Of a DNA stretch of 64,000 nucleotides, positions 15,972-38,632 are shown piece by piece. The translations under genes and the position numbers were made by a program. The notes beneath the pieces are model-generated. The model had not been told where the DNA came from and did no database searches. It saw nothing but the letters and a program-made list of their open reading frames with translations. Source of the DNA: Clostridia bacterium (GTDB lineage: Bacteria; Bacillota; Clostridia; Oscillospirales; CAG-272); contig JAFTNU010000001.1 in NCBI GenBank assembly GCA_017451735.1, positions 11,156 through 75,155 of the forward strand, given 5' to 3'. Positions within the stretch are counted from its first letter, which is position 1; each line of letters begins with the position of its first letter.

Positions 15972-16006
15972 CTTGCTCTCCTTCCTCGCACTCACTTCTA
16001 TAATAC

Positions 16007-16505: not shown

Positions 16506-16566
16506 TAGAAACGCTGAGTTTGAAAAAGTCAAGTAACATAAGGAATTATGCTTATTTTTAATTATC

Positions 16567-16622
16567 AAAAACAAGGGTACTTTTTGAGAGCGTTTTTTGC
16601 GCAAAAAATACCCATGTTTTTT
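16567..16622. terminator. Long bidirectional terminator hairpin (repeat copy b)
   Basis: AAAAACAAGGGTACTTTTT .. AAAAAATACCCATGTTTTTT. Confidence 0.6.
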
Positions 16623-16632
16623 AATGCGGATA

Positions 16633-16661
16633 TTGACAAACGTTATAACATTTGGTATAAT
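16633..16661 (+). promoter_or_regulatory. Consensus sigma-A promoter
   Basis: TTGACA, 17-nt spacer, TATAAT. About 40 nt upstream of the 16701 start. Confidence 0.65.
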
Positions 16662-16700
16662 AAAAATAATAAAACTTGTTATACAAAGCGGAGGCATAAA

Positions 16701-17564
16701 ATGCAAAAGCTAATCAAGAGAATAAGAGAATATTTGGGGCTGAGCCAAGCCGACTTCGCTGAGAAGCTGGGCGTGACCTTTGCGACCATTAACCGTTGGG
16801 AAAACGGTCGCGCAATTCCCACGAAGCTGGCGCAGGCAACCCTTTATGAATACTGCAAGGCACAAGGCGTTCCCGTTTACGATATGATCCTCGATAAGAT
16901 CAGAGCAACGACCGAAGAAATCGCACTTGAAGAAGGTCGCGTCCTTCTCTACCACGGCTCAAAATCGGGCATCGTTGGCGACATCGCACCCAAGAGCCGC
17001 GAGATGTGTGACTTCGGCAAGGGCTTCTATATGGGAACTGAGCCCGGACAACCGCTGACTCTGATATGCGATTTTGAAAAATCCAAGTTCTATATCGTGT
17101 CGATTGATACGCAAGAGCTTGATGCCATTGAGATCAAAGCCGACCTCGATTGGGCAATGCTTGTTGCATTCCACCGTGGCAGAATGGCGCAGATCAAGGG
17201 TACGGAGTTCTACAGCAAATACAGTCAACTTGATGCAGGCAAGGATCTCATAATCGGAAGCATCGCAAACGACAGAATGTTCTACGTGCTCGATAACTTC
17301 TTCACCGGCGGCATCACGGATATGGCACTCGTCAATAGCCTCTCTGCCCTCAAACTCGGAAAGCAGTACGTGGCGACCACCGAAAAGGCGTGTGCAGCCG
17401 TTCGCATTGAGAAGGAGCTCCCCATCTCCATGATGGAGCGCAGATTCCTTCAGGACGAAAGCGAAGCCAACCGACAGAAAGGAATACACCTTGCAAACGA
17501 TATTTGCAAGAACTATCGCCGTGAAGGAAAGTTCTTTGACGAAATACTTGACGAAGCAAAATAA
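16701..17564 (+). CDS. XRE-type HTH fused to a DUF3990-like domain
   Basis: RBS GCGGAGG. N-terminal HTH (LGLSQADFAEKLGVTFATINRWENGR). The C-terminal LYHGSKSG..DFGKGFYMG pattern is recalled as DUF3990. Confidence 0.65.
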   Translation: MQKLIKRIREYLGLSQADFAEKLGVTFATINRWENGRAIPTKLAQATLYEYCKAQGVPVYDMILDKIRATTEEIALEEGRVLLYHGSKSGIVGDIAPKSREMCDFGKGFYMGTEPGQPLTLICDFEKSKFYIVSIDTQELDAIEIKADLDWAMLVAFHRGRMAQIKGTEFYSKYSQLDAGKDLIIGSIANDRMFYVLDNFFTGGITDMALVNSLSALKLGKQYVATTEKACAAVRIEKELPISMMERRFLQDESEANRQKGIHLANDICKNYRREGKFFDEILDEAK

Positions 17565-17576
17565 CAGGAGGACACA

Positions 17577-17993
17577 ATGAACGAACTCCAACTGAAAATG
17601 TGTGATATACAAGGCAGACTTTTCGAGCTGTCAGGCGCGAGCGGTTACGATAGCGTGACATTCATCAAGGCGTTTATGACGAGCGAGGTCGCCAAAGGAC
17701 TTGATTCCAAGTTCAACCGCATGCAATGGGCTGGCGAAGAATATCTTCTCGCTGAGATCGCCGATAACGCCGAGCTCACCAAGGGCGGCACCGTGTACGA
17801 TAAAGAGGTGCTCTATTGGGCAGGCTACCTCTACCGCTTCTGGCACTTCGCCACAGGTGAGGATAGCAAAGATATCTACCGCCAAGCCCCTGCCGAAACC
17901 ATGAGCCGCAATTGGCTTATCTTCCACACCCTCGCCCCCGAAGTGGCAATTGAGGATCTGAAAGAGATTTATAGGCAGAAAAACGAAAAGTAA
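17577..17993 (+). CDS. Hypothetical protein (138 aa)
   Basis: Tightly linked downstream of the HTH-DUF3990 gene. No motif recognised. Confidence 0.55.
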   Translation: MNELQLKMCDIQGRLFELSGASGYDSVTFIKAFMTSEVAKGLDSKFNRMQWAGEEYLLAEIADNAELTKGGTVYDKEVLYWAGYLYRFWHFATGEDSKDIYRQAPAETMSRNWLIFHTLAPEVAIEDLKEIYRQKNEK

Positions 17994-18007: not shown

Positions 18008-19090
18008 ATGTCAGATAAGAATTGGCAATTTGAACTTGAAGAATATATAAAACAGGGTGAGCCCGGAAAAACAGAAAAAAGTGATGCATGGCGAACAGCC
18101 ATCGGTCTTCAAGCGGTAGACGGGCTGACTACCTCGGAATATCTTCTCGATACTGCGAAGGAGCATATCGAGGGTAACATCAGTATCGACGAGGCGCAAA
18201 AGCGCATTCAAAGCTACTATGAGCAACGTACCGAGCGCACCGAAATCGAAGATGCGATCAAGGAAGCCGATATCGTTTCCGCAAGAATCGCAAAGCTCCT
18301 CGGCGAAAAGAGTTTTCAGTTTTCGCCTGCGGAGTGGATGACCATTCACCGCAGACTGTTCGAGGGCGTATTCAAGCACGCAGGTCAGGTCAGACCATAC
18401 AACATCACCAAGAAGGAATGGGTGCTGAACGGCGACACGGTCATCTATGCGGATTTCAACAGCATCCGTGATACTTTGGATTACGACTTCGCAACCGAAA
18501 AACAGTTCTCATACGAGGGGTTGTCCGTAGAAGCAGCCGTTAAACACCTTGCAAAATTTGCATCGGACATCTGGCAGATCCATCCCTTCTGCGAGGGCAA
18601 CACGAGAGCGACTGCCGTCTTTATGATCAAATATATGAAAACATTCGGTTTCCGCGTAAATAACGATGCTTTCCAAAAGAATTCGTGGTATTTCCGCAAT
18701 GCGCTTGTAAGAGCGAACTACAACAATTTGCAAAAAGGCATTCATTCCACAACGAAATTTTTGGAAATGTTCTTCGACAATCTCCTCTTGGAAACCAATC
18801 ACGAGTTGAGAAACAGATATATGCATGTGGATTACGTGGCTGAAAATGATTTCCAAAGTATCATTTCCAAAGCTCCAAAGTCTCAATTTGATACTTTGGA
18901 CTGCACTTTGGAAGAATTGGCGGTGCTGGAATTGGTAGCAAAAAATCCAATGATAAAACAGCAAGAGCTTGCCGATGCCACGGGAAAATCTATCGCCACC
19001 ATCAAACGCGTGATGAAATCCCTGCAAGACAAGAACTATATCCGCCGCGAAAGCGGAAAACGCTACGGCAAATGGGAAGTTTTAGTATAA
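18008..19090 (+). CDS. Fic-family protein with C-terminal winged-helix domain
   Basis: Fic motif HPFCEGNTRATAVF (HxFx[DE]GN[GT]R). C-terminal MarR-like wHTH (ELADATGKSIATIKRVMKSLQDKNYIRR). Confidence 0.8.
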   Translation: MSDKNWQFELEEYIKQGEPGKTEKSDAWRTAIGLQAVDGLTTSEYLLDTAKEHIEGNISIDEAQKRIQSYYEQRTERTEIEDAIKEADIVSARIAKLLGEKSFQFSPAEWMTIHRRLFEGVFKHAGQVRPYNITKKEWVLNGDTVIYADFNSIRDTLDYDFATEKQFSYEGLSVEAAVKHLAKFASDIWQIHPFCEGNTRATAVFMIKYMKTFGFRVNNDAFQKNSWYFRNALVRANYNNLQKGIHSTTKFLEMFFDNLLLETNHELRNRYMHVDYVAENDFQSIISKAPKSQFDTLDCTLEELAVLELVAKNPMIKQQELADATGKSIATIKRVMKSLQDKNYIRRESGKRYGKWEVLV

Positions 19091-19109
19091 TATGAAAGAG
19101 GAAACAAAA

Positions 19110-19949
19110 ATGGCTATCAGTAAAAAACTTGAAATTATATATCACAACGGTCAGCCCGATGGAATTCGATCCATTCGCAGACATCTCTCCACGATGACAA
19201 CCTATGTTATTCCTCGTCCTCTGCTGTCGGAAGCAAAGAAACTTTCCAGAATCAACCGCCCCGGAATCTACTATCTGATCAGCGAGAATGACGATAACAA
19301 AATCGCTCAGATTTATATCGGTCAGACGAGAAATGGCGTTGTTCGCCTTGATGATCATAATCGTTCAAAGGACTTTTGGAATAAAGCAATTATGTTCTTG
19401 GCAGATAACAAAACATTCTCTCTTGATATGATAAGCGGTCTTGAAGCTTATGCCATCGGCAAGGCTCACGACTCCAAGCGCTACAAAGTGGAAAATTCGG
19501 TCAATCCCAAGTATGAGATTGATGAATATGATCTCCCTTTAATCGAGGAGGTTTACGAAGAAATTCAATTCATCATGGCAACGCAGGGCTACAAGATGGA
19601 TAACTCCAAAACAACCCTAAATGAAGCTAATACGTTACATACCACTCGCAACGGAATTCTTGCTTTTGGTGTTTACGACGGTGAGAATTTTGAGGTTTTG
19701 GAAGGCTCGGAAATCGATATGAACCGTAGATGCCATTCGGCAACGATAGAAAAACAACGCCAAACAGCTCTCGCAAACGGCAATATTGTTTGCATTGACG
19801 GAAAATACAAATTAAATGTTTCTGTATCCTTCACCTCTCCCAGCTCTGCTGCTATGTTTGCTTTGGGCGGCAGTACAAATGGTTGGGTTGAATGGAAAGA
19901 CAAAGACGGAAAAACGCTGGACGAGATTTATAGAAAACAATTCAACTGA
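19110..19949 (+). CDS. GIY-YIG nuclease domain protein with DUF4357-like C-terminus
   Basis: PGIYYLISEN..IYIGQT (GIY..YIG). C-terminal FTSPSSAAMFALGGSTNGWVEWK resembles DUF4357. ATG at 19110 follows AAAGAGGAAA (alternative ATG at 19092). Confidence 0.7.
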   Translation: MAISKKLEIIYHNGQPDGIRSIRRHLSTMTTYVIPRPLLSEAKKLSRINRPGIYYLISENDDNKIAQIYIGQTRNGVVRLDDHNRSKDFWNKAIMFLADNKTFSLDMISGLEAYAIGKAHDSKRYKVENSVNPKYEIDEYDLPLIEEVYEEIQFIMATQGYKMDNSKTTLNEANTLHTTRNGILAFGVYDGENFEVLEGSEIDMNRRCHSATIEKQRQTALANGNIVCIDGKYKLNVSVSFTSPSSAAMFALGGSTNGWVEWKDKDGKTLDEIYRKQFN

Positions 19950-19980: not shown

Positions 19981-22545
19981 ATGTCTATCAGATTATGGCC
20001 GCAAGACTTTGAACGTAAAGATCATATTACAAAAGCCGAAAAGGCTCTTTTGAGGTATGCTTCTCGCAACTTTCAGAATGGTCATATGGTGATAGGTATT
20101 GACCCTGTAGGATTAAGTACCGATAAAGTTAGAATGGGAATGTATATTTCACCTAACGAGGGGCTTGTTACATTCTCGATATATACAGGTAGCATTAATG
20201 CCTTATTAATCCCTCACTATATCAGTTATGTTGAAATGGTCGAGGCGAAAATACACGAGCGCCTTTTGGATTCTAAAATGTTGATCGTTAGAAATGGGCA
20301 AAATAAGGCTCTCAAATTTCCTTATAAACACATTATAATTTTTGCGGATGAAACTGCTGGAAAAACTACTCTCTCATCGCAAGATCTTAATAAATTGTTG
20401 CACTATGCTACCTTTGAATCCTTTAGACCGATTACATCTCAAGGCAAGGAAAAAAGAATTGAAGACTTGATGGTATTCGGAGGAATTAGGAAAGCGTACG
20501 ACAAAACATTCAAGTCTTTGTCTGATTCGGAATGCAGAGCGATATTTGAACGTTTGGCGGAAGAATACACCGTCGTAATGAATGAAACCGAAAACGTTAA
20601 AATTACCGAAAAGAAAGCTCTTGTTACAGAAAAAGATCTTCGAATAACCGGTCGAGAGGTGGAATACAAGACCTTTTTCCTTGATGAATATCAGGTCGGT
20701 GTCGTTAACGATATGGGTAAAGGACATCGTGTAATCCTTGCGAACCCTGGGGCTGGAAAGAGTGTATTGTTATTGTCGAAAGCTTTCAAATACGCGAGCC
20801 TTTATAAAGGTTCCAATGTCTTGTTGACTTGCTATAATAACAATTTGGCAGATTCTTATAATTTTAAGCGTAACTGCGCGAATTTTGGCGAAAATAATAA
20901 TTTGTTTATTATGACTTTCCATAAACTCGTCAAAAAGATTTATGAGGAATGTCTCCATTCGCACTGTGAAACCAACATAGCAACTGATGAAGAGATTCAA
21001 AAGTGCATAGATTTGGTGAAACAAGGAAAGGTTAATCTTAAATTTAAGGCAATTTTCATAGATGAAGTTCAAATTTTTGATCCTCTCTACCTTGAATTGT
21101 GCTATAGCTTACTTGAAGAAGACGAAGATCGAGTTTTCTTGATGGCCGGCGACTTGAATCAGGCTGTTCGAGCGTTGAGCCGAAAAGGAGATGCACCGTG
21201 GAAACGAATGAACGGTGTCCATTTGGACTTTACTGGGCGCGTTCGTTACATTGAAAAAAACTATAGAAACAGTAAGGAAATCGGCGAATACATTTCTCAT
21301 ATGTTACAGCATATGAACACTCGCCTCTCAATGTTGGATTTGATCAATTCACTTGAATATGAGTATAACTCATTTAAGATAGGTACAAATCCAACAATAG
21401 CATTGAAAGTTCAAACCGGAGTTCAAAGAATAGATATAAAAAAGCAAGTAATTGCAGCTATTAAAGAAATCTCCACAAAATACAAAATCAGTTATTCGGA
21501 AATCGCTGTGCTTTTCCCGTTCAGAAAGGTTCCTTATCACAAATATCACTTCCTGTATTGGCTTCAGCAAGGACTTGACGAAGAAGGAATCCCTTATTCG
21601 ATGATTATTAACGAACATGAAGGAAGTCATGTTAAGGTGAGACAAGGGGATATTTCCGGAGTGGTTGTATCTACTATTGAATCTTCGCTCGGACTGGACT
21701 TTAAGGCTGTTATTTTAGCAGGTCTATACCCCTATAGCTATGTCAATGTGGATGGCGAGGTTGTCGGGGATATCAAAACATGGACCAGCATTAAGAATAT
21801 GCCTGACAATCAACAAACTGCTGTCCAAAGCCAAATGCGAGCTGTATATACTGCGTGTTCAAGAGCTCGAGATGTGTTGTATGTTATAAGTGATTTGAAA
21901 CCCGGTTCTCCTATGGAAGAGATCATAAAGAAGCAATCTGACAGGAACAGTGTATCAACATCAACTGTACGCATGTCGCCAACACCTGCCAAGGCCAACA
22001 GCAATACCAGCTCAAGAACGGCAGGCAACAATTCTTTTACAACAACTAAAGAGTATTTAGTACAAGAGGTCACTGACCACGTTACGGTTCAGGCAACGAT
22101 TCAAGAGTCTAAAAAGCCTACTACTATTACTGTTGATGTTGCAAAATACCCGAAGCAGAAAAGCATTATTGGAAAAAAGGTCGGGGAAACATTTAAGTTT
22201 GTGGGTATTCCCTTAACCTACAAAATAGATAAAATCATTTCTTCCGAACCGCCTAAGTTTGATAAAGGACCTACGATATCAACAAAGCCTATAGAAGCTA
22301 AGCCTGCTGTAAAAAATTCTTCACCAACTGAGAAAAAGCTTTCACTAAAAGAATATTTTGAAAGCAAAGGCTTTTTCACTATAGACTGTCGCGGATGGAA
22401 CGGATGTCTTTGGGTTCTTGGCGATCAAAAGAAATTAGAGCCGTATGTAACAGAAGCAAAACGATTATATGGAGCAACTGGTGCGTATGGTTCGGGTAAA
22501 CAAACCAACTATAAACCTGCATGGTGGACAAAATCGAACAAATAA
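19981..22545 (+). CDS. UvrD/SF1-type helicase with N- and C-terminal extensions
   Basis: Walker A NPGAGKSVLL, Walker B FIDEVQIFD. UvrD_C-like STIESSLGLDFKAVIL and YTACSRARDVLYV. A low-complexity linker then a small C-terminal domain. Confidence 0.75.
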   Translation: MSIRLWPQDFERKDHITKAEKALLRYASRNFQNGHMVIGIDPVGLSTDKVRMGMYISPNEGLVTFSIYTGSINALLIPHYISYVEMVEAKIHERLLDSKMLIVRNGQNKALKFPYKHIIIFADETAGKTTLSSQDLNKLLHYATFESFRPITSQGKEKRIEDLMVFGGIRKAYDKTFKSLSDSECRAIFERLAEEYTVVMNETENVKITEKKALVTEKDLRITGREVEYKTFFLDEYQVGVVNDMGKGHRVILANPGAGKSVLLLSKAFKYASLYKGSNVLLTCYNNNLADSYNFKRNCANFGENNNLFIMTFHKLVKKIYEECLHSHCETNIATDEEIQKCIDLVKQGKVNLKFKAIFIDEVQIFDPLYLELCYSLLEEDEDRVFLMAGDLNQAVRALSRKGDAPWKRMNGVHLDFTGRVRYIEKNYRNSKEIGEYISHMLQHMNTRLSMLDLINSLEYEYNSFKIGTNPTIALKVQTGVQRIDIKKQVIAAIKEISTKYKISYSEIAVLFPFRKVPYHKYHFLYWLQQGLDEEGIPYSMIINEHEGSHVKVRQGDISGVVVSTIESSLGLDFKAVILAGLYPYSYVNVDGEVVGDIKTWTSIKNMPDNQQTAVQSQMRAVYTACSRARDVLYVISDLKPGSPMEEIIKKQSDRNSVSTSTVRMSPTPAKANSNTSSRTAGNNSFTTTKEYLVQEVTDHVTVQATIQESKKPTTITVDVAKYPKQKSIIGKKVGETFKFVGIPLTYKIDKIISSEPPKFDKGPTISTKPIEAKPAVKNSSPTEKKLSLKEYFESKGFFTIDCRGWNGCLWVLGDQKKLEPYVTEAKRLYGATGAYGSGKQTNYKPAWWTKSNK

Positions 22546-22580
22546 ACAACAATCTTGGTACTCAACAGGAGGATCATCAT

Positions 22581-25500
22581 ATGGCAAATAATTATAACAT
22601 TTTAGCAGATTACATAGTATCCAAATACATCGAAAGAATCTCCGGAGAAGATATTGCGGAGACTTTTGTAGATGATTCTCCTGCTGATCGTGTTATGGTC
22701 GGTATGTTAGCCGAAAACAGAATGGAGCAGCGATTTGACGGTGGATACGCAGAAAATAGTACCACTCGTTTCGAAAGCGTTCCGTCTATAAGCGTTTCTT
22801 TTGCTGTGAAAAAGAATCCGTTGGGTATGCTTAAGGTTGTTCCAAAAGGTCTCCTGTTTTATACAGTAGAACCTGACTATGATAAGACAGTTGCTTTTTT
22901 GATACAAAAGTATTCTGAAAAGGATAACGTTCGATATACCAACATTCAGCAACTTTGCGATGCCCACCCCGAAGACAAGTTCTATCTTCCTTTGACATAT
23001 AAAAAAATCAAGATCGAAGATGAAATGAAAGGTGGAATATCTGTACCGCTAATATCTCTTCAAGAATCCAAATTTCATTTGGAACAACAGATAAACGAAC
23101 GCCTTTCTGAACTTGCCGATAAAATTAGCAACGAGATTAAGGTGATAAAAAGTGATCGCGTATCTTTGTTTGACTTGGTGGATAAAGAACGCTTTTATCT
23201 GGTGACTGGTGGAAGCGAAGAGCCTGTATATCCTCGTTGGATTATCGATATCTATTGTACGGTTATTGACGAGGGGGACTCCTACCACTTCTTGATGCAG
23301 ATGGTTAATAAGACCCCTGTAAACGGAAAAAGCAATATTGGCTATCTGCCTAAAGTATTCAATGCCGGGATGGATATCATCGGCAACAGAGCTGTTAAGT
23401 TCAAAAATATAGATTTGGACTACTTCAAAAGCAGTTACAAATCTCGTTCTTTGGTATATGCTGTTGCAGAAAACACATCTGCTTCTCACTGCCCCGAAGA
23501 TAATGCTATACGTACTGACAATATTCCTCGGTACTACCAAAAGCGCTTGAAAACCAAAGACGGATTAACCGAATATGTTAAATTTGAAAAGCTTATTCAA
23601 GATCCTGTTGGCAATTTGAATTGCATTTACAGAGAGATGAAGGCTGATTACGAACAATGTTCTAACGAATTTAACACTACAAGATTTCCCAGTGCTGTCG
23701 CAAAAGATAAATTCAGAACAGCGTTGGAGGAATATGGTCGCGAAATAGCTCGTTTCAAAAAAGGCATAGAACAAATTGAATATAAGGATTATGTTAAAAA
23801 GGCTTTTGTTTGTATGAACAAAACCTTTATGACAAAACTTTCTGGTGAGCATAGACAAATTAGCGGTTGGCGTTTGTTTCAGATCGTATTTATAGTCTCT
23901 TTGATTTGTGAAATGATCAGAAGTGAATATAAGAATGACAGGACCATCGCTGAAGCTGATATAGAAATGGCAAATCTTTTGTATTTTCCCACAGGTGGTG
24001 GTAAGACAGAAGCTTTTCTTGGTGCATGCGTTTTCAATATGTTTTTTGATCGCTTACGCGGCAAAAACGAAGGAATTACTGCTTTTCTTAAATATCCCTT
24101 GAGATTGCTTGCAGTACAGCAGTTAGATCGTGTACTGACAATTGTTATGAAGGCAAATGTTGTACGCGAATCTATTCCCGAGCTTGCTCACAAGACACCG
24201 TTCCAAGTAGGATTTTTTGTTGGAAAAGGAAATACACCTAACAAGATTGATGCTTATGAGCGTTTGAGCGAACGCGGAGAAAAGAATAAATCGAAAGATC
24301 TTATTCTTGAAAGCGATCAGGAAACCCTGAACGATTATTATCGCTTCATCGATACTTGTCCCTTCTGCGGTAAGAAAGAGGTTAATCTTCGTTTTAATCA
24401 AGACAATTGGAAATTGGAGCATGTTTGCGACAACCCCGAGTGCCCCATCAATGTGCTCCCCTTGATGATTGTCGATAATGAAATATATCGATACTTGCCC
24501 TCTATTGTAGTTAGCACAATAGATAAAATGGCTATGCTTGGTACAAGCAACGATTTCAAGATGCTGTTTGGTCAAGTAAAGAAAAAATGCCCCGTGCATG
24601 GATTTACAAGCACTTCAAGATGTTCTTGCTCCGCTTGTAATAACAATTCTCTTGAGAATGTAGGATTGCTGAAGGATCCTATCCCCACTTTATTTATTCA
24701 AGACGAAATGCACTTGGTAAAAGAGAGTTTGGGAACATTTGATGCGCACTATGAGTCTTTTTTGAGTTATTATGCCAAAGAACTTGTTCCGGAAGCTCAT
24801 CGTAAACTTATTCGCTTTGTGGGTGCAACCGCGACAATTTCCATGTATGAAGCTCACATATGGAATTTGTATCACATGGAGGGACGCCGGTTCCCGTGTG
24901 AATATCCTTCTGCTAAATCCGGAGAGGATTTTTATTCGTATACCGATGAAAACGACATAACTCGTATATTGATCGGCTATGCACCTTACGGAAGGTCTAT
25001 CACAGATGGAATGTGGGAATCCGTATATATTATGAGGCTCATTGTCTACAGAATGATTCAATTCATAGATGAGAGTTATGCAGCTCTATGTGATGCAGGA
25101 TTTGTTGGCAGCATCGATGAGTACAAGGAAATGCTATATGATTATTGGATCGAATTGGTTTACAACAACCGCAAGCAAGATGCAATGGAACTCGAAAATG
25201 CATTTCAAAACCAGGCTAACAACTATTTGGAAGCCAAGGGCGTTCCAAAATATGTTATAGAGCAAATGACCAGTGATGTGGATTTTCAAACGGTAAGAAA
25301 AACATTGTTTGATATCCATGCAAACAGAAGAAATTTTGATAGTACCAACTTGCTATTGGCAACAAGTACGATCTCACATGGTGTAGACGAGGATTCCTTC
25401 AACATTATGTATTTCTTTGGTATGCCCAACAATAACGCAGAGTATATTCAAGCATATTCTCGTACCGGACGTAAACATACGGGTATAGTCGTTGATATTA

Positions 25501-25979
25501 TCCGTTTGATGCGAGTACGTGACCGCTCATACTTGAAGAATTTTGTGATTTTCCATCAAAACCGAGACGACTTGGTTGAAGCCGTTCCGATTAATCGTTG
25601 GGCGAAGAATGCTATTTATAGCACATTACCGGGATTGCTGTCCGGATTGATTAGGCAACACTATACAATCATTACAGGCACCGATAGCTTGCATCAGGCT
25701 ATAAAAGTGCAAAAGCTGTTGCGTTCTGAAGATATTGATATTGACGACGTTATGTCGAAGCTGATTAATGCATATGGCTGCAACAACCAAGAAAAGATGT
25801 CGCTTGCGTACAAAGAAATTATAGCTGAAGAAACGAACAACATCCTTTCCGGACTTAAAAATGGCAACTTCACAAATGAATTTTCTCTTTCTGACGCTAT
25901 TGGAAAATTCTCACGCGGCAAGAAAACGCCTATGACAAGCTTGCGCGATACAGAAGAACAGATTGAGATAAAGATCTGA
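22581..25979 (+). CDS. DrmA-like DExH (SF2) helicase
   Basis: ATG at 22581 follows GGAGGA. Motif I FPTGGGKTEAF, motif II FIQDEMHLV, motifs V/VI TSTISHGVDE..QAYSRTGR. Internal Zn-ribbon CPFCGKK..CDNPECP. About 1130 aa and followed by a DUF1998-like gene, as in DISARM. Confidence 0.65.
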   Translation: MANNYNILADYIVSKYIERISGEDIAETFVDDSPADRVMVGMLAENRMEQRFDGGYAENSTTRFESVPSISVSFAVKKNPLGMLKVVPKGLLFYTVEPDYDKTVAFLIQKYSEKDNVRYTNIQQLCDAHPEDKFYLPLTYKKIKIEDEMKGGISVPLISLQESKFHLEQQINERLSELADKISNEIKVIKSDRVSLFDLVDKERFYLVTGGSEEPVYPRWIIDIYCTVIDEGDSYHFLMQMVNKTPVNGKSNIGYLPKVFNAGMDIIGNRAVKFKNIDLDYFKSSYKSRSLVYAVAENTSASHCPEDNAIRTDNIPRYYQKRLKTKDGLTEYVKFEKLIQDPVGNLNCIYREMKADYEQCSNEFNTTRFPSAVAKDKFRTALEEYGREIARFKKGIEQIEYKDYVKKAFVCMNKTFMTKLSGEHRQISGWRLFQIVFIVSLICEMIRSEYKNDRTIAEADIEMANLLYFPTGGGKTEAFLGACVFNMFFDRLRGKNEGITAFLKYPLRLLAVQQLDRVLTIVMKANVVRESIPELAHKTPFQVGFFVGKGNTPNKIDAYERLSERGEKNKSKDLILESDQETLNDYYRFIDTCPFCGKKEVNLRFNQDNWKLEHVCDNPECPINVLPLMIVDNEIYRYLPSIVVSTIDKMAMLGTSNDFKMLFGQVKKKCPVHGFTSTSRCSCSACNNNSLENVGLLKDPIPTLFIQDEMHLVKESLGTFDAHYESFLSYYAKELVPEAHRKLIRFVGATATISMYEAHIWNLYHMEGRRFPCEYPSAKSGEDFYSYTDENDITRILIGYAPYGRSITDGMWESVYIMRLIVYRMIQFIDESYAALCDAGFVGSIDEYKEMLYDYWIELVYNNRKQDAMELENAFQNQANNYLEAKGVPKYVIEQMTSDVDFQTVRKTLFDIHANRRNFDSTNLLLATSTISHGVDEDSFNIMYFFGMPNNNAEYIQAYSRTGRKHTGIVVDIIRLMRVRDRSYLKNFVIFHQNRDDLVEAVPINRWAKNAIYSTLPGLLSGLIRQHYTIITGTDSLHQAIKVQKLLRSEDIDIDDVMSKLINAYGCNNQEKMSLAYKEIIAEETNNILSGLKNGNFTNEFSLSDAIGKFSRGKKTPMTSLRDTEEQIEIKI

Positions 25980-25991
25980 GGTGAGAAAAAA

Positions 25992-27902
25992 ATGAAAAGA
26001 AGTAAAACACAAGCGGTATACAGATTTTTACCCGATATGTGGATATCTGAAAAAGGTGATTCTGATCGTGCCATTTCTGCAAGGATCAAGAATTGGAACT
26101 ATATCAAGATGTCCGACATCTATGAAGACTTTATCGAGGAAGAAATAAAGCGTCAAATAAAGTTGTTTGGGGATCGCGGAGGCGATATTAGTGCATTCGA
26201 TATCACTCATGGTACGCACACCTTTTCGGTTGTAGAAACTGCATGTAATGAAGGCATTCCGGATATTATTGGCGAAATGTCGCCATTGGTGTTCTATTGC
26301 AGCTCGTGCGGAACGGTTTTTGATGTTAGAAATCCATCGGATGTAGATAAGTATACTTGGAAATGTAAGGAATGTGGTAAATGGGCCGTAAAACAGCTCC
26401 AGATGATTTATGCATGCGAATGTGGTCATGCACAGCCCATTAAAATTCCCTATGTACCAGGCGTTAAAGATTTTAAGTATCGCCCCAATGAAACACAGTA
26501 TAAAATGTTTTATAAAAGCGGTCTCGCTGACAAGCCTGCAGAATTTGTGCTACCATGCCCTACGTGCAATTCAAGACTTGTTCCTGACAACGCAAATTCC
26601 GGACGGAATTACAAGCCTTTTACTCTGAGAGTAATAAATTTGGTGGATGAACGTTGTGGACGGTTTTATAAAAAGGGCTTGGACGCTCAAAAAACGATCG
26701 TATCGCGTTGGTTTGATAAGATATCGGCTGAAGACTACGAAGAGATTCTAAACAATATCGATTTGGCATTCAGCGATGCATTTAGAAGCGATGCCCAGCG
26801 GCTTCAGTTCGAACAACAGGTACGTTCTTTAATAGATATCGGTTTAATACCGGCAGACCAGTTCGAAAGCGCTGTTAATAAGCTCATGCAGGATAATCCT
26901 AACACAAAAAGCGTTGAAACATATGTTGCACAGTGCGATGATTTGTTTGCAAAGAGAAAAGCAGAGGACCCCGTTGGGTATACAGAGTGGCTCGGTCATT
27001 TTTCTTTCAAATTGATGCAATACGATACTCTTAAGTATGCGAAGAGAATTGTAACTTTGGAGGAAGCAATTCTGCGCCAGCTTGAAATGGAGTTTATTGA
27101 TTCCGCTGATGAGGTGCATGAGTTGAACGCCAAGTTAGGAATCAAAAATATGCAAGTTTCTTGCGATATTCAAATCCTTAACTGCACCTATGGCTATACT
27201 CGAAGAAGCGCTGATCCTAAGATTGCTTCCAACAACAACTCCCGTTGTAGATTAAAGCTCAATGCCTATGACAAAACACGTGACGGAACTGCAAATCTTG
27301 TGTACGGTGCAAAATTGGATACAGAGGGTATCCTTTTTGAAATTGATCGAAGAAAAATCATTGAGTGGCTGCATGATAATGATATTATCCTTGAAGAGCA
27401 ACTACCGGACCTTGACGATGAAGTATCCGTAAAAAAATGGTTTGCGGAGTATGTTCATAGCGATGTAATTTCTATGTTTGGAGAAATTGATGAAAGCGAA
27501 GTCATCACAAAGAATGTTTTTGCATTGCTCCATTCAATGTCACATGCATTTATGAATGCAGCCGGCGAATTAAGTGGTCTTTCCAGTAATTCCTTGACAG
27601 AAATAATCATTGTCGAAACGGCAAGCATATTCATTTATGCTCAGACCAGCCAAGGCATCCCTCTTGGTGCATTGTCTGGTATGGCTGAAACCAACTACGC
27701 TTATTTCTTGAAAAAAGCATTTGATGAAACCAAGAATTGTGTGTTTGATCCGATTTGTACGGAAAGAGACGATACTGCTTGTAGCGCTTGTTTAATCATT
27801 CCGGAGATATCGTGCAATCACTTTAACGCAGAACTTGGAAGAAAATATCTGTATTCAATAGACGGTGCTGAAACACCAACTATTGGTTTTTGGGAGATGT
27901 AA
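25992..27902 (+). CDS. DUF1998-like (DrmB-like) protein
   Basis: C-terminal Cys cluster CVFDPICTERDDTACSACLIIPEISCNHFNAELGRKYL resembles the DUF1998 Zn motif. N-terminal CxxC pairs are present. It immediately follows the DExH helicase. Confidence 0.6.
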   Translation: MKRSKTQAVYRFLPDMWISEKGDSDRAISARIKNWNYIKMSDIYEDFIEEEIKRQIKLFGDRGGDISAFDITHGTHTFSVVETACNEGIPDIIGEMSPLVFYCSSCGTVFDVRNPSDVDKYTWKCKECGKWAVKQLQMIYACECGHAQPIKIPYVPGVKDFKYRPNETQYKMFYKSGLADKPAEFVLPCPTCNSRLVPDNANSGRNYKPFTLRVINLVDERCGRFYKKGLDAQKTIVSRWFDKISAEDYEEILNNIDLAFSDAFRSDAQRLQFEQQVRSLIDIGLIPADQFESAVNKLMQDNPNTKSVETYVAQCDDLFAKRKAEDPVGYTEWLGHFSFKLMQYDTLKYAKRIVTLEEAILRQLEMEFIDSADEVHELNAKLGIKNMQVSCDIQILNCTYGYTRRSADPKIASNNNSRCRLKLNAYDKTRDGTANLVYGAKLDTEGILFEIDRRKIIEWLHDNDIILEEQLPDLDDEVSVKKWFAEYVHSDVISMFGEIDESEVITKNVFALLHSMSHAFMNAAGELSGLSSNSLTEIIIVETASIFIYAQTSQGIPLGALSGMAETNYAYFLKKAFDETKNCVFDPICTERDDTACSACLIIPEISCNHFNAELGRKYLYSIDGAETPTIGFWEM

Positions 27903-27904
27903 TT

Positions 27905-29494
27905 ATGGCAAATATGTATCCGAAAAATATCAACGAATATATGCCTACAGATTCAGAACGAATTGTGTATCAGGAACTGAAAAATCAACTTCCTGATTCC
28001 TTTGATGTGTTCTATTCTGTTAGCTGGACAAGCTATAATGCCGGACGTTTGGTAAAATCAGAAGCTGATTTTGTTGTTGCCAGCCCGGATTATGGTTTTC
28101 TCTGTCTTGAGGTAAAAGGCGGGAGTGGTATTCGAATTGAGGATAATGTTTGGTATCTTTCGGATGCAGTCCATGGAGAGCGGAAACTTAATATGTCGCC
28201 GTACGCCCAAGCAGAAAAGAACATGTATTATTTTAATCAGGTCTTTTCTAATAAGTATCACATGAAGTATTCTGGAACCTTTGGCGCAGGCGTTGTTTTT
28301 CCTTTCTATCCTATAGGAAACGATGTTGATTTGAGCAATCGAGACCGTGATTGTACTATAGATAGTAATGATTTAAACAATCTCTATAATCGAATCAAAA
28401 AAATGTTTCGTTTATGGGGGGGAGCTTCATATGGCAGACGCTTTTATCCATTAAGTCAACACCATGCCTTCCTGGAATTAATCCGTGATAGACTCGCCAT
28501 TTCTGCTGCCGCAGGGGCTCTTGTCCGATACAAAGATCAACAACTGAATGTGATCAATCGTGTGCAGGATAATTACATATATTTGCTTTCAAACGTAAAA
28601 CAGTTTTATATGCGCGGAGGCGCAGGCACAGGTAAAACATGGATTGCTATGAAAATGGCCAAAAATGCTACCGAGACATCTGAGCAAAAGGTGTTATTTG
28701 TGTGTGCTTCCAAACCACTTGCAGAAATGGTGCATTCCCATATTGGTAATACAGTGGACGTAAAAGATATTCGTTCCTTGTTCCAAGGTGTAATACATAA
28801 TTTTGAGACCTTCTACGAGCCAACATTCATTGGATTAAGCAATAATCTGATCGAGGATTGCCCGAAGTATGACGCTATATTTGTAGATGAAGCTCAGGAT
28901 TTCACTTCGGAGTGGGCAACTATAGTAAAAAAGCTGTTGGTTGATGAGAAAAACTCTCGTCTCGGCGTATTCTTTGATGATATTCAAGTACTGAGAGAAG
29001 ATAGCTTCGGCGATGGATTTGGTATTCAGGAAGCACCGTATTTGCTGAGAGAAAATATCCGAAACACAGCGAATATATACAATTGGGTTGCTGACAAAAC
29101 AAATCTCGGAACTGATATGATTGCCAATCCCGTTGAAGGCCCTACTCCTATCACAGAGATGGTATCCGAACGCGGTCAGCTGATTCTACTTCTTGAAACA
29201 CTTTTCAGACGTTATCTCGAAGAAGAATATTTAAAAAACGATTGTCTGGTGATTATATCTGACAACAAAGAAAAACTGTTGCGTGAGTTTCCTGATGGTA
29301 TAGCAAAATGGAAATTCGTTGATGGACCTCCTTGTAGCGAAACAGAAATAGGGGTGTACTCTATCGAAGAGTATAAAGGCTTGGAATCCAATATGGTAAT
29401 CTACATACATGATATAGTCGCAACGGAAAATATGAATTACATCGCATATACAAGAGCGAAATATTATCTTATAGAGTTGGTGAGGAATTTCTAA
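27905..29494 (+). CDS. NERD-domain nuclease fused to SF1 helicase
   Basis: NERD-like SEADFVVASPDYGFLCLEVKGG. Walker A GGAGTGKTW, Walker B FVDEAQDF, C-terminal YIAYTRAKYYL. Start lies 3 nt after the upstream stop. Confidence 0.7.
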   Translation: MANMYPKNINEYMPTDSERIVYQELKNQLPDSFDVFYSVSWTSYNAGRLVKSEADFVVASPDYGFLCLEVKGGSGIRIEDNVWYLSDAVHGERKLNMSPYAQAEKNMYYFNQVFSNKYHMKYSGTFGAGVVFPFYPIGNDVDLSNRDRDCTIDSNDLNNLYNRIKKMFRLWGGASYGRRFYPLSQHHAFLELIRDRLAISAAAGALVRYKDQQLNVINRVQDNYIYLLSNVKQFYMRGGAGTGKTWIAMKMAKNATETSEQKVLFVCASKPLAEMVHSHIGNTVDVKDIRSLFQGVIHNFETFYEPTFIGLSNNLIEDCPKYDAIFVDEAQDFTSEWATIVKKLLVDEKNSRLGVFFDDIQVLREDSFGDGFGIQEAPYLLRENIRNTANIYNWVADKTNLGTDMIANPVEGPTPITEMVSERGQLILLLETLFRRYLEEEYLKNDCLVIISDNKEKLLREFPDGIAKWKFVDGPPCSETEIGVYSIEEYKGLESNMVIYIHDIVATENMNYIAYTRAKYYLIELVRNF

Positions 29495-30312
29495 TGGCAT
29501 CAATAACATCATTTATACGTTGGGCGGGAGGCAAGTCATGGCTTGTTCCATATGTATCCCAACTTATTCAAGGGCTTGACTATAACAATTACTATGAACC
29601 ATTTATGGGTGGTGCGTCGATTTTCTTCTCACTGGATATTCCCCACAACGGATATTTGTCGGATTTGAACGCTGAATTGGTTGATGCTTTCTGTGAGGTA
29701 AGAGATAATCCTCAACAAATCATTGAACACCTTAAAGAATATAAAACCGATGAAAAAAGTTATTATGCAGTTCGAGCTACCGAACCTACTGATAAACATC
29801 AAAAAGCCGCAAGATTTTTGTATTTGAATGCTACCTCGTTTAACGGTATATACAGAGTAAATAAAAACGGAAAGTATAACGTTCCGTATGGAAAAAAAGA
29901 AGTAACCCTTAATTGTCAAAGAATTTTAGATGTTGGAGTAAAGCTTAACGGCATTAATATTACCTGTCAGGACTTTGCCGCTATACAACCCAATTTAGTT
30001 GCAGGAGACTTGGTGTTCTTGGATCCTCCTTATACTGTTTCAAAAGAGGACACCGGCTTTGTTGGATATAATTCCACATGGTTTTCACTCGACGATCAAA
30101 GAAGATTAGCTCAATTAATTGATCACATTAATAACATAGGGGCTTATTATATTATGACGAATGCAGCTCACCCGACAATTACGGACATTTTCGCAGGAAA
30201 AGGACGTATGATAACTCTTGAACGAAACAGTTTGATTGGCGGCAAAAAATCCTTTAGAGGAAGAGTTCAAGAATACATTTTCACAAACATACCCGAAAGG
30301 AGAGATGTATAA
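29494..30312 (+). CDS. Dam-type (D12 class) N6-adenine DNA methyltransferase
   Basis: FIRWAGGKSW (motif I region) and FLDPPY (motif IV). Start overlaps the upstream stop (TAATG). Confidence 0.85.
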   Translation: MASITSFIRWAGGKSWLVPYVSQLIQGLDYNNYYEPFMGGASIFFSLDIPHNGYLSDLNAELVDAFCEVRDNPQQIIEHLKEYKTDEKSYYAVRATEPTDKHQKAARFLYLNATSFNGIYRVNKNGKYNVPYGKKEVTLNCQRILDVGVKLNGINITCQDFAAIQPNLVAGDLVFLDPPYTVSKEDTGFVGYNSTWFSLDDQRRLAQLIDHINNIGAYYIMTNAAHPTITDIFAGKGRMITLERNSLIGGKKSFRGRVQEYIFTNIPERRDV

Positions 30313-32618
30313 TGGGAAGAACAGATTGGGGACAAATAGTATTCGATAAACAGTTGGCTACTGCCAAAAGCAATCACAAAAAAATATTTGTTTCACAGAA
30401 GATTCTAGCTTCGGAACTTCCCGAGTATATTGATGCCGGGTGGGAGAAGAGCAAAGATTATAAGAGTCCTAAATTCGTTGGTGTTTCAAAAGAAAAGCCC
30501 ATAAGCGAACAATTTGAAGATCGCATTTGGTTATTGTTTGCAAGCATGGGATTTAACGGACTTAATGAAGAGAATGGAATACAAATATCTTATGACTTTA
30601 ACAATGATGACATAAAAGAACGCATCGGTATTGTTGCGGTAGATGAAGAAACTGTTCTAATCGTTTTGTGTCACGCTTCTGAGACGATGGTTGAGCGTAG
30701 CTTTGCTACTGAAATTAACGATTTTAGCAACAAAATTGCAGGGATAAGAAAAGAAGTTCTCAAGCAATATCCTGGCAGAAAGATCAAATTTATTTGGGCA
30801 TCGCATAATTTCATTATGAATCGTCGCGATCTCGCACTTTTGGACAAGGTAGGGATTGCCTATTTCAGCGATACAACGATCGAATACTATTCCGATTTGG
30901 CAAAGCATCTTGGATCATGTTCGAGATATCAACTTTTGGGAAGCCTTTTCGCCAACCAAGAAATTAAGAATATGGATGACAGAGTTCCTGCCATTCAAGG
31001 CAAAATGGGCGGATATACCTATTATTCTTTTTCCATTGAGCCTGAAAAGCTTCTGAAGATCGGATATGTGTTGCATCGTTCTGAAGCGAACAAAAATATG
31101 ATGCCTACATATCAGCGTTTAATTAAAAAGAAACGTCTTCAGGAAGTACGTTCGTTTATCAATGATGGCGGATATTTTCCCAATTCCATCATAATTAGCA
31201 TTGATACCAATGGAAAGGGGCTTTCATTCGATCAATCTTCTTCGAAAGTGGATAGCACCATTTCGAAAATTGGTATCTTGCACATTCCCAAGAGATATAG
31301 ATCTGCCTATATTATTGACGGTCAGCATCGTTTGTACGGATATTCGGATTCTCTCTATGCTGCAACCAATACTATTCCTGTTGTTGCATTTGTAGATTTG
31401 GATCGTACAGAGCAAATCAAACTCTTTATGGATATCAACGAAAATCAAAAGGCTGTTCCCAAGTCCCTCCGCGTAACATTAAATGCGGACATGCTTTGGG
31501 AATCTCCGGACCTTGGTGAACAGCGTCAAGCTCTTCGTTCTAAGATTGCACAAATGCTTGGAGAAGAAGCGACATCTCCTCTTAACTCAAGAATTGTAAT
31601 TGGTGAAAACGAGTCTACTCCTACCCGATGCATTACAGTCGAGGCTTTGCAAGTGGCTCTAAAGAAGTGTAGATTCTTCGATAGTTACGGAAAGAAGAAT
31701 GCTCTTCAAAAAGAAGGAACTTTTGATTGTAAGGATAACCAAGAGACCTGCGATCTGTTTTATCCATTTATCGAAAAATGTTTACTCTATATCAGAGAGA
31801 CCTGTTTGGAAGAATGGGATAAGGGCGACAGTGACAACGGAATGCTCACTATGAACCGTGGTATACAAGCCGTAGTTCGCGTTATTGATGATGTCGTAAA
31901 CATGCTTGTTGAGAAAGGAATGATTAACCCCAAGACGCAAGCATTGGACGATATGTTTGGTCTCATCCAATACTACTTGAAGCCGCTCACCGACTACATA
32001 AACAATTTGAACGCAGAACAGCGCAAAGATTTACGCGGATATTTCGGTGGCGGTGCTGATACTCGTTTCTGGAGAGCATATCAAAAGGCGATTGCTGATA
32101 TGCGTCCCGACTTCACTCCCGAGGGATTAGAAGAGTTCTGGCAAAATGAAACAAAGATGTACAACGATGAAACAGTTTCTATGATTCAGGAAATTGTAAC
32201 CAAGGTTAAACTGTTGATCTCTGAGCGCTTAAATGATTATTTTGGAGAAAGCTGGTTAATTAAAGGCCTCCCCAAAAACATTTATACCCGTGCAAAGGGT
32301 GAGGCAGATGAAGCCATGTATATCCATGTGACCAACACAGGAGAAGAAATTGATATTCCCGTGTGGGATTATGTTACACTCCCCGAGTGTAAGCAGATCG
32401 TACTCAACGGCAAAAACTGGTCTCTGTTTTTCGAAGACACATTTGTCCGTCCCGAAGAAGCTAATCTCATAGGGGGCAAAGATGTAAAAACGGATTGGTT
32501 ACTCAAGGTCAATTCTATATCAAACAAGCTCTCAAAGGAAAGCTATAGTGTTCCCGTTGATGAGTACACGTACGTAAAAAGTATATATGACTGGTTGATG
32601 GGAATTCTTGTTTTCTGA
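30312..32618 (+). CDS. DGQHR-domain (DndB/ParB-like) protein with long C-terminal extension
   Basis: IIDGQHRLYG motif, upstream QRLIKKKRLQEVRSFINDGGYFPNSIIISI. Start overlaps the methylase stop (TAATG). Confidence 0.7.
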   Translation: MGRTDWGQIVFDKQLATAKSNHKKIFVSQKILASELPEYIDAGWEKSKDYKSPKFVGVSKEKPISEQFEDRIWLLFASMGFNGLNEENGIQISYDFNNDDIKERIGIVAVDEETVLIVLCHASETMVERSFATEINDFSNKIAGIRKEVLKQYPGRKIKFIWASHNFIMNRRDLALLDKVGIAYFSDTTIEYYSDLAKHLGSCSRYQLLGSLFANQEIKNMDDRVPAIQGKMGGYTYYSFSIEPEKLLKIGYVLHRSEANKNMMPTYQRLIKKKRLQEVRSFINDGGYFPNSIIISIDTNGKGLSFDQSSSKVDSTISKIGILHIPKRYRSAYIIDGQHRLYGYSDSLYAATNTIPVVAFVDLDRTEQIKLFMDINENQKAVPKSLRVTLNADMLWESPDLGEQRQALRSKIAQMLGEEATSPLNSRIVIGENESTPTRCITVEALQVALKKCRFFDSYGKKNALQKEGTFDCKDNQETCDLFYPFIEKCLLYIRETCLEEWDKGDSDNGMLTMNRGIQAVVRVIDDVVNMLVEKGMINPKTQALDDMFGLIQYYLKPLTDYINNLNAEQRKDLRGYFGGGADTRFWRAYQKAIADMRPDFTPEGLEEFWQNETKMYNDETVSMIQEIVTKVKLLISERLNDYFGESWLIKGLPKNIYTRAKGEADEAMYIHVTNTGEEIDIPVWDYVTLPECKQIVLNGKNWSLFFEDTFVRPEEANLIGGKDVKTDWLLKVNSISNKLSKESYSVPVDEYTYVKSIYDWLMGILVF

Positions 32619-32747: not shown

Positions 32748-33128
32748 ATGACAAAACAAGAATTTCTTGAATATTGCTTCAATACATACAGCACATCGCC
32801 GGACTATCCATTTGACGATCTTCATGAGTCTGCGGTGCTCAGGCATAGGGATAACCGCAAATGGTATGCGATTGTGATGCGCGTATCCCGGCGCAAATTT
32901 GGGTTTGATAGCGACGAGGTAATCGATGTGGTCAATCTCAAGCTCCCGACCGAAATGTTCGGTTCGTTCGGAGCGACTGACGGTGTCTACCCGGCGTACC
33001 ACATGAACAAGCTCCATTGGATCTCCGTGCTTCTGACCGATGCGCCCGATGATGTGGTGCAGTTCCTTGTGAACGTAAGCTTTGAGGCAACAAAGACGGT
33101 CAAAAAAAGAAAGACGCAACAAATGTAA
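32748..33128 (+). CDS. MmcQ/YjbR-family protein
   Basis: DYPFDD..VLRHRDNRKWYAIV..VVNLK..YHMNKLHWISVLL pattern typical of the YjbR fold family. Confidence 0.7.
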   Translation: MTKQEFLEYCFNTYSTSPDYPFDDLHESAVLRHRDNRKWYAIVMRVSRRKFGFDSDEVIDVVNLKLPTEMFGSFGATDGVYPAYHMNKLHWISVLLTDAPDDVVQFLVNVSFEATKTVKKRKTQQM

Positions 33129-36645: not shown

Positions 36646-36753
36646 AGGGCTCCTCCTTTTTTGGAATAAATAAAAATAGAGCGAAGTCACGCAGACTCCG
36701 CTCCGCAAAAAGAATGTGCAAAAGCACTCTTTTTTCTATGTGCGGTTATTATA

Positions 36754-38464: not shown

Positions 38465-38491
38465 ATATAACCTCCTGGGCTTGTTTAATTC

Positions 38492-38520
38492 ATTATACAA
38501 TGAAGGAGGCCGAATGTCAA
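38492..38520 (-). promoter_or_regulatory. Consensus promoter of the repressor gene
   Basis: Minus strand reads TTGACA, 17-nt spacer, TATAAT. Followed by AATTAAACAA (38481-38490, minus). Confidence 0.65.
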
Positions 38521-38561
38521 CAGGAATGTCAAAAAAATTAAACAAATTTTGTTCAACCCAC

Positions 38562-38590: not shown

Positions 38591-38632
38591 GTGTTTAGCC
38601 AATTAAACAAAGCGGCCTGAAAGGAGATTATT

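Follow-up and report, generated by a model that had tools for sequence, protein, structure and literature searches.

Results

Organization of the six-gene locus

We analysed a 64,000-nucleotide stretch of the genome of a Clostridia bacterium (assembly GCA_017451735.1, contig JAFTNU010000001.1, positions 11,156 to 75,155 of the forward strand), hereafter the window, in which a preliminary description had pointed to a non-canonical DISARM-like defence operon. Reading of the open reading frames (ORFs) of the window revealed six intact, co-directional and tightly spaced genes, p1 to p6, on the plus strand at 19981-32618, where the GC content is 0.38-0.40 versus ~0.55 in the outer flanks; the six AT-rich genes and the motifs listed for them in that description are all present in the sequence. 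The first four genes make up a conserved core (module A). Its first gene, p1 (19981-22545), encodes an 854-aa UvrD-like superfamily 1 (SF1) helicase and is followed by p2 (22581-25979), encoding a 1132-aa DrmA-like DExH helicase of the YprA family of superfamily 2, p3 (25992-27902), encoding a DrmB-like protein of 636 aa that has zinc ribbons at its N terminus and a Cys cluster of the DUF1998/MZB type at its C terminus, and p4 (27905-29494), encoding a 529-aa fusion of a NERD (PD-(D/E)xK) nuclease with an SF1 helicase. The remaining two genes form a second module (module B), in which p5 (29494-30312) encodes a 272-aa Dam-family (D12 class) N6-adenine DNA methyltransferase and p6 (30312-32618) a 768-aa DGQHR (ParB/DndB/DpdB-like) protein.

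The gaps read from the sequence are 35 nt between p1 and p2, 12 nt between p2 and p3 and 2 nt between p3 and p4, and TAATG overlaps join p4 to p5 (29494) and p5 to p6 (30312). The p2 ORF can be read from ATG 22521 or ATG 22581; the latter is the likely start, because AGGAGG sits 8 nt upstream of it and the homologues are 1131-1133 aa long. Likewise, the p4 ORF is readable from 27890 or from ATG 27905, and the second is the likely start, giving 529 aa. All six ORFs are full length compared with their homologues. A promoter and terminator scan returned the same counts as in shuffled sequence.

The core proteins p1 to p4

Domains were assigned to p1-p6 with three libraries of hidden Markov models (Pfam, PADLOC and NCBIfam), which all agree and which bear out the N6-adenine methylase, the two SF1 helicases (one of them NERD-fused) and the DGQHR protein of the preliminary description. 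The DrmA/DrmB-like pair proposed there was also recovered. p2 matched the PADLOC DrmA model PDLC02576 at 3.9e-132 and the solved DrmA structure 7s9v_A at 3.9e-44, with Pfam matches to Helicase_C (9e-7) and DEAD (1.6e-6), and contains the motifs PTGGGKT, DEMH and QAYSRTGR. p3 matched PADLOC DrmB at 7.2e-52 and the solved DrmB 7s9v_B at 1.4e-5, the latter over residues 502-620, which is the region of the Cys cluster. This cluster consists of C583, C589, C597, C600 and C608, and these residues together with C103 and C106 are invariant in 41 homologues. The DUF1998-like character assigned to the cluster earlier thus holds for the cysteines and for the family, in which PF09369 (DUF1998, now 'MZB') matches 20 of 41 full-length members, but this profile misses p3 of the window itself. 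When the Pfam threshold was relaxed to E values up to 1, residues 1-360 of p3 yielded zinc ribbons only, and nothing useful was obtained for residues 1-235 and 651-854 of p1 or 1-420 of p2.

Homologues of p2 and p3 are fused in three single proteins of 1646-1746 aa (P0170, with 1646 aa, P0191 and P0212), of which P0170 shares 32% identity with p2 across the full length of p2. In this lineage, DrmA and DrmB are thus not always split, and by such natural fusions (Rosetta-stone evidence) p2 and p3 would act together as a single helicase, like the unsplit members of the YprA family.

p4 combines a Pfam NERD domain (PF08378, 2.4e-9) with SLFN-g3_helicase (1e-9). It matched the PADLOC RTasNERD-Hel model over its full length (7e-44) and, more weakly, Nhi, AbiO and GajB, and none of the sequences of solved structures. 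In 15 homologues, with identities as low as 34%, residues E53, D55 and E69-V-K71 of the nuclease are invariant, as are the Walker A motif (238-245), DExQD (328-332) and the later SF1 motifs. From these motifs we predict that p4 is active as both nuclease and helicase.

p1 matched Pfam AAA_19, UvrD-helicase and UvrD_C, and the PADLOC 'NERD+UvrD' model C3a187 covered its helicase portion only (1e-18). Its SF1 motifs GxGKS (257-261), DExQ (361-364) and Y623/T624/R628 are invariant over 16 homologues. Foldseek related its AlphaFold2 model to the SF1 helicases SLFN11, Dna2, RecD2, UvrD and GajB (E values of 1e-9 to 1e-6), and the sequences of solved structures gave a weak helicase IV match only. 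The N-terminal ~235 residues are weakly conserved and lack a nuclease motif. A C-terminal tail of ~200 residues (655-854; 21940-22545) is confined to the closest relatives, and the majority of homologues end at ~650 aa. This tail comprises a low-complexity linker and two small domains, 690-755 and 790-854, which have no family match and are modelled with a predicted local distance difference test score (pLDDT) of 80-90.

The methylase p5 and the DGQHR protein p6

p5 matched MethyltransfD12 (PF02086, 3e-40), the PADLOC MTase_II models and, at 196 bits over a cut-off of 115, TIGR00571 dam. Its DPPY motif lies at residue 177, and its nearest solved relative is the GATC methylase DpnM (2dpm, 8.5e-48). 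GATC is not depleted in the window, which gives no signal for or against restriction pressure.

The DGQHR domain of p6 occupies residues 225-535 (TIGR03187, 170 bits over a cut-off of 59); the DGQHR pentapeptide itself (336-340) is invariant in homologues and is accompanied by the QR and FxxxN signature of the ParB/Srx-fold NTPase family. p6 falls far under the cut-offs of the related models, with 86 bits against 300 for DpdB (NF041060) and 41 against 328 for DndB (TIGR03233). It matched neither the sequences of solved structures nor, over residues 1-224 and 536-768, any useful Pfam family at E values up to 1. The AlphaFold2 model of p6 has a mean pLDDT of 61, reaching ~85 in the N-terminal domain (~1-165) and falling below 50 in the DGQHR region, which is poorly modelled; the C-terminal region is helical. 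The top Foldseek matches of the N-terminal domain in the PDB are all PD-(D/E)xK nucleases (Cdn1, VC1899, the small subunit of R.BspD6I, McrC, Can2, AF1548, XisH and Hjc), and E69, D70, D95, D111, E113, K157 and K159 are invariant in homologues from six-gene and pair-only loci alike. The model suggests that this domain is likely nuclease-like, with a restriction-endonuclease-like fold.

Conservation of the six-gene block

The preliminary description had proposed a survey of gene neighbourhoods. In ours, the six genes recur in unchanged order amid at least four unrelated sets of flanking genes, with DrmB-like proteins that are 84-93% identical to p3. Because the flanks differ while the gene order stays, the block and not its surroundings is what is inherited. 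Overall, the six-gene order was found in 53 contiguous loci (36 distinct identity profiles), with the stop-start overlaps at p4/p5 and p5/p6 kept. Across these 53 loci the identities of p2-p6 to the window drop together from 98% to 60%, with Spearman coefficients of 0.86-0.94 for all pairs; this co-divergence shows stable linkage but is not proof of interaction, since shared ancestry inflates such values. The arrangement of the six genes is not due to chance.

Two further genes were considered as components and rejected. A GIY-YIG/DUF4357 gene upstream, a candidate seventh gene, is restricted to the closest relatives (L003/L004 and L018). In one close relative (L001 16688-21759 and L002 9273-14344) the block is followed by a gene for a 1051-aa protein combining RE_NgoFVII/PLD, helicase and DUF3427 domains and by a gene for a DUF6788/AAA_14 protein; both are missing from the other contexts and probably represent a separate adjoining system. 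In two loci the ORFs of the block are broken. In L018 (3647-16658; CP091718.1, an Oscillospiraceae metagenome-assembled genome, MAG) the block is split into many short ORFs despite 90-97% identity, and in L003 (3988-6551) p1 is cut in two; either these are frameshifts introduced by sequencing or assembly, or the system is decaying.

Distribution of the four-gene core

To follow module A beyond close relatives, one genome per species was scanned with an alignment of 12 DrmB-like sequences, and the six window proteins were compared by BLAST with all ORFs of the 41 loci recovered. These loci, with 28-97% DrmB identity, come mostly from Clostridia, Lachnospiraceae, Oscillospiraceae, Erysipelotrichaceae, Bacilli, Selenomonas and a Tenericutes MAG, along with a few MAGs labelled otherwise. 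The order p1-p2-p3-p4 was present in ~36 of the 41, down to 28% DrmB identity; nearly every locus not cut by a contig end has it, and so does the single viral contig found. In nearly all 41 loci p1 stands immediately before p2. p4 directly follows p3 except in L045 and L046 (Bacilli), which are without p4.

What accompanies the core varies. The pair p5-p6 comes after p4 in one clade only, which comprises at least 14 genomes and has DrmB identities of 60% or more. An adenine methylase adjoins most core loci at varying positions: a different Dam gene lies upstream of the core in L024, L025, L027 and L030, and a Dam gene alone lies downstream in L032, L041, L042, L049, L051 and L053. In L024, 'Dam + four genes' is a complete unit, because ROK, MFS and amylase genes bound it. 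In L033 (13488-20087), L034 (13484-20095) and L037 (13496-20056) the core is followed by genes for a DpdE-like SNF2 protein and a DpdF-like DEAD helicase (PADLOC 7.6e-83 and 2.8e-107) and accompanied by a conserved protein of 265-270 aa without a family match. By their domain matches, these loci link the core to the Dpd restriction module. An MT-A70 methylase, considered as their regular partner, was rejected, as it occurs only in L033, beside a relaxase. In three of the most distant loci, with 28-33% DrmB identity, homologous radical-SAM genes follow the core (L047 5400-6824, L048 11971-13779 and L050 13537-14973; in L047 a GHKL-type ATPase gene lies in between), and these could be an alternative DNA-modification module. 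A PDC-M33A/B/C candidate triple (C being DUF6339) adjoins the core on either side in L032 (14521-18699), L042 (11595-15580) and L045 (671-4223), as a recurrent neighbour or partner. The core of L028 is flanked by housekeeping genes and has no recognisable accessory genes.

The Dam-DGQHR pair outside the block

A metagenome scan with a p6 alignment yielded 80 loci. Where p6 is at least 60% identical to that of the window, the full block is present wherever the contig extends upstream. At 57-61% identity, a Dam gene whose product is 46-51% identical to p5 overlaps the start of p6, and p1-p4 are absent. In the pair-only loci L113, L123 and L130 the contigs reach up to 10 kb upstream, and their flanks are all different. 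p5 is nearer to these pair-only Dams (46-51% identity) than to the Dams beside other cores (28-39%), which indicates that Dam and DGQHR genes were joined to the core as a unit. Judged from these sequences, module B constitutes a second, autonomous module. The six genes are thus co-conserved in the 53 loci but do not form one indivisible system, since core and pair each also occur alone.

Just 3' of p6, a 126-aa ORF (32748-33128), which we take by eye to be MmcQ/YjbR-like, recurs downstream of p6 in L021 (82-86% identity) and also in the pair-only locus L118, whose p6 is just 59% identical. This distribution may reflect recombination near the 3' boundary of the Dam-DGQHR cassette.

Genomic surroundings

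Two large serine recombinase genes on the minus strand, at 12451-14010 and 35173-36708, bracket the low-GC island that contains the block. On the plus strand directly upstream of p1 lie three defence candidates, namely a PDC-M42A/B-like pair (an HTH+DUF3990 protein and a small partner; 16548-17993), a Fic+wHTH protein gene (PDC-S72, 9e-133; 18008-19090) and a GIY-YIG+DUF4357 protein gene (PDC-S14, 8e-67; 19092-19949). On the minus strand are genes for a PRiA4_ORF3/DUF6933 protein (14850-15995) and, as a further defence candidate, an AbiD-like Abi_2 protein (36754-37761). The island looks like an integrated mobile element with stacked defences.

To the right of the block, 37817-54714 is occupied by a second, phage-like element, which encodes an S24/LexA-type repressor, DUF7666, PcfJ-like, DUF3102 and Lin1244_N proteins, a collagen-repeat protein, a rolling-circle Rep-like protein and two large proteins without assignment (657 and 721 aa). 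CTAG is nearly missing from the whole window (1-64000), with 2 occurrences versus ~54 expected from trinucleotide composition, and is scarce both in the host-like flanks and in the low-GC island.

Comparison with named defence systems

DISARM comprises drmA (pfam00271), drmB (pfam09369) and drmC (pfam13091), to which class 1 adds drmD (pfam00176) and drmMI (pfam13659) and class 2 adds drmMII (pfam00145), with or without drmE (10.1101/2021.12.28.474362). The present locus is like DISARM in having a split YprA-family DrmA-like helicase followed by a separate DUF1998/Zn-binding DrmB-like protein, a nuclease gene right after DrmB, a methyltransferase in the operon, extra helicases and a defence-island setting. 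In contrast to DISARM, it has no PLD DrmC (pfam13091), whose place is taken by the NERD-SF1 fusion p4, and neither SNF2 DrmD nor DrmE, while the UvrD-like SF1 helicase p1 precedes DrmA and a DGQHR protein is added. Indeed, PLD, SNF2, DrmC, DrmD, DrmE, DrmMI and DrmMII models matched nothing in p1-p6 or in the neighbours between 11.4 and 38.6 kb, as the preliminary description had read for PLD, SNF2 and DrmE, and Pfam and PADLOC detected no C5-cytosine methylase (pfam00145) among p1-p6. The same description had likened the methylase to that of class 1 DISARM. This likeness does not hold, as DrmMI is a PglX-like enzyme (pfam13659), whereas p5 is a small D12/Dam enzyme nearest to DpnM; it also differs from the C5 methylase DrmMII of class 2. 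DrmA and DrmB features were thus found at family level only, and class 1 and class 2 features were not found; going by its domains, the locus resembles DISARM and belongs to neither class.

The locus fits the 'DISARM-like' YprA clade in which Bell et al. 2025 place Dpd and, like Dpd, includes a DGQHR/ParB-like protein (DpdB in Dpd); some core relatives (L033, L034 and L037) carry DpdE-like SNF2 and DpdF-like helicases, as described above. DpdB is an ATPase that aids preQ0 insertion into DNA, and DndB is seen as a negative regulator (PMC12839542). However, the split helicase here keeps a four-Cys cluster that canonical DpdJ lacks, and p6 is twice the size of DpdB (~350 aa), has an extra nuclease-like domain and is partnered by Dam. 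No match to DpdA (TGT), DpdC, preQ0/7-deazaguanine synthesis or DndACDE was found in p1-p6 or the flanks, and because the modification-synthesis genes are absent, the locus is not Dpd or Dnd. With its DpdB-like p6 and the DpdE/F-like genes of its relatives, it bridges the DISARM and Dpd families.

ARMADA, BRIGADE and TALON are likewise centred on YprA helicases, modular and located on mobile elements (10.1101/2025.09.15.676423); ARMADA shares a methylase and extra helicases with the locus, and TALON a NERD nuclease. Their helicases differ in belonging to the Druantia-like branch, with a fused DUF1998, a BrxA-like insert and a C-terminal nuclease, all of which are absent here, as are the BrxHII and PglX methylase of ARMADA and the TPR-CSD and TBP genes of TALON. 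NERD, DGQHR, DndB and UvrD go unmentioned in four supplementary table files of Bell et al. 2025.

Taken singly, p6 and p4 also have counterparts elsewhere. GmrSD and SspE join a ParB-fold (DUF262, DGQQR) NTPase to a second, nuclease-like domain as in p6, but that domain is a C-terminal HNH/DUF1524 there and an N-terminal PD-(D/E)xK-like one in p6, which matched neither SspE nor GmrSD of PADLOC. The pairing of p6 with a methylase suggests that p6 spares methylated DNA rather than targeting modified DNA. Nhi, AbiO, GajB and the NERD-helicases that accompany defence-associated reverse transcriptases (DRT) share the NERD and SF1 helicase architecture of p4; unlike these, p4 is fixed in a four-gene DrmAB-like operon and is neither stand-alone nor a reverse transcriptase partner.

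No named system for this gene combination, or for either module, was found in the literature searched, in line with the preliminary description, which had recognised no named subtype. Annotation by the Prokaryotic Genome Annotation Pipeline gives these genes generic names only: the RefSeq homologues of p1-p3 in Pseudoflavonifractor phocaeensis are called 'AAA family ATPase', 'DEAD/DEAH box helicase family protein' and 'Zn-binding domain-containing protein', and those of p4-p6 'nuclease-related domain-containing DEAD/DEAH box helicase', 'Dam family...' and 'DGQHR domain-containing protein'.

Discussion

Our results suggest, with somewhat better than even confidence, that p1-p6 are a composite anti-invader defence locus made of two co-transcribed cassettes, module A (p1-p4) and module B (p5-p6), which are stably fused in the clade of the window. 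We favour this reading because p2 and p3 are homologous to DrmA and DrmB and occur as fusion proteins, the p1-p4 order is conserved and the catalytic residues of p4 and p1 are invariant, and moreover because a methylase adjoins most cores, the gene overlaps are kept, p2-p6 co-diverge and the setting is a defence island. By analogy with the characterized systems, we consider it most likely that the locus restricts invading DNA that is unmethylated, in a DISARM-like manner.

In DISARM, DrmAB binds single-stranded DNA with a 5' overhang, methylated DNA lowers its ATPase activity, and DrmC is dispensable and may be substituted by other nucleases (PMC9142583); PD-(D/E)xK nucleases stand in for PLD in some YprA systems (10.1101/2025.09.15.676423). 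Following this precedent, p2-p3 would form a DrmAB-type split YprA helicase complex that loads on single-stranded or 5'-overhang DNA of the invader and translocates along it at the expense of ATP, and p4, in the position of DrmC, would be the protein that cleaves and degrades the invading DNA. p1 may serve as a second SF1 motor aiding unwinding or processing. p5 would mark host DNA by methylation, probably at GATC, so that targeting would be sensitive to methylation, and p6 may either aid or regulate methylation or provide a second restriction activity on unmethylated DNA.

Several findings weigh against this composite reading. p2 scored 358 bits against the NCBIfam model DISARM_DrmAS, under its curated cut-off of 950, and p3 scored 86 bits against DrmB_fam, under a cut-off of 240; because of the former, p2 is best regarded as a family-level DrmA relative and not an equivalog. 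The N-terminal domain of p1 is modelled with pLDDT <50 and is not interpretable. For the probable GATC specificity of p5, the indication is similarity to DpnM and nothing else. The Foldseek E values behind the nuclease call for p6 are only 0.01-0.3, and the domain is without the canonical (D/E)xK lysine. Module B stands alone in L110-L133, and no methylase is visible beside the core in L028, L034, L037, L045, L046, L048 and L050, so that neither module need depend on the other for its function. A methylase is thus not universal in the core family, and the term 'methylation-guarded' applied to the locus earlier fits the clade of the window but not the wider family.

These last points lead to the alternative that survives best, in which two independent systems stand in tandem, p1-p4 acting independently of methylation and p5-p6 being a self-contained restriction-modification-like pair, with Dam for modification and the DGQHR protein for restriction. 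We regard this as possible but rather doubtful. Each module does occur without the other and between unrelated flanks, some cores are without a methylase, the relationships of p5 point to capture of the pair as a unit, and the predicted restriction-endonuclease-like fold of p6, with its conserved acidic residues, would supply the pair with a nuclease of its own. However, stop-start overlaps tie p4 to p5 and the arrangement is kept down to ~60% protein identity, while the adenine methylases adjoining most other cores suggest that the core uses one. Nor does a core without a methylase necessarily ignore methylation: class 1 DISARM recognises unmethylated sites, yet survives loss of its methylase (10.1101/2021.12.28.474362).

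Two other explanations seem to us very improbable. The YprA family contains repair helicases, and the element is bounded by serine recombinases, so the genes could be a repair or a replication and maintenance helicase set of the mobile element, akin to MrfAB/YprA, with Dam serving replication or regulation of the element. But the models that p2 matches are those of DISARM DrmA, not of housekeeping YprA, and a helicase split from its DUF1998 part is typical of DISARM. The block also includes a NERD nuclease and a methylase of the restriction type, it stays constant while its flanks vary, and its neighbours in the window are defence candidates. Similarly far-fetched is a hypermodification system of the Dpd or Dnd kind, with the DGQHR protein guiding a modification other than methylation and the helicases reading it. 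p6 does match DpdB and DndB models, and core relatives have DpdE-/DpdF-like helicases or a radical-SAM gene, but p6 scores far under the DpdB and DndB cut-offs, DpdA/TGT, DpdC, DndACDE and 7-deazaguanine synthesis genes are absent from block and flanks, and the constant partner of p6 is a Dam methylase. Finally, that the locus is a canonical class 1 or class 2 DISARM, decayed or partial after losing DrmC and DrmD/DrmE, has hardly any probability left and is largely refuted by the neighbourhood survey. In its favour are the DrmA/DrmB matches of p2 and p3 and the PLD+helicase+DUF3427 gene that follows the block in L001/L002. Against it, those matches lie under the DISARM equivalog cut-offs, the PLD gene is missing from other contexts, the models of DrmC, DrmD, DrmE, DrmMI and DrmMII match none of the six proteins, all six ORFs are full length, and 41 species-level genomes and 80 metagenome loci conserve an intact architecture without PLD.

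Beyond the preliminary description, the composite reading adds the two-module structure, the four-gene core with a NERD-helicase in place of PLD, and the autonomous Dam-DGQHR pair with its nuclease-like domain. We tentatively propose, as a possibility short of even odds, that the core represents a third DISARM-like class, found mainly in Bacillota and equipped with swappable self-marking or accessory cassettes, and that the pair represents a new restriction-modification-like module of Dam and a nuclease-like DGQHR protein. The DISARM kinship of the helicase core is clear, and undescribed classes in this clade are already expected by specialists. How DISARM destroys phage DNA is still a question, because the PLD nuclease is dispensable; here is a natural DISARM relative in which PLD is consistently swapped for a nuclease-helicase fusion with intact catalytic residues. 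Cores with, without or with different methylases offer natural variants with which to probe the effector and the reading of methylation. If active, the free-standing Dam-DGQHR pair would provide a very common methylase with a restriction partner of a new kind, and the large DGQHR protein, which abounds in gut and rumen metagenomes, would gain a function. If the proposal is true, then two nucleases that differ in mechanism would be licensed by a single methylation mark wherever core and pair are fused.

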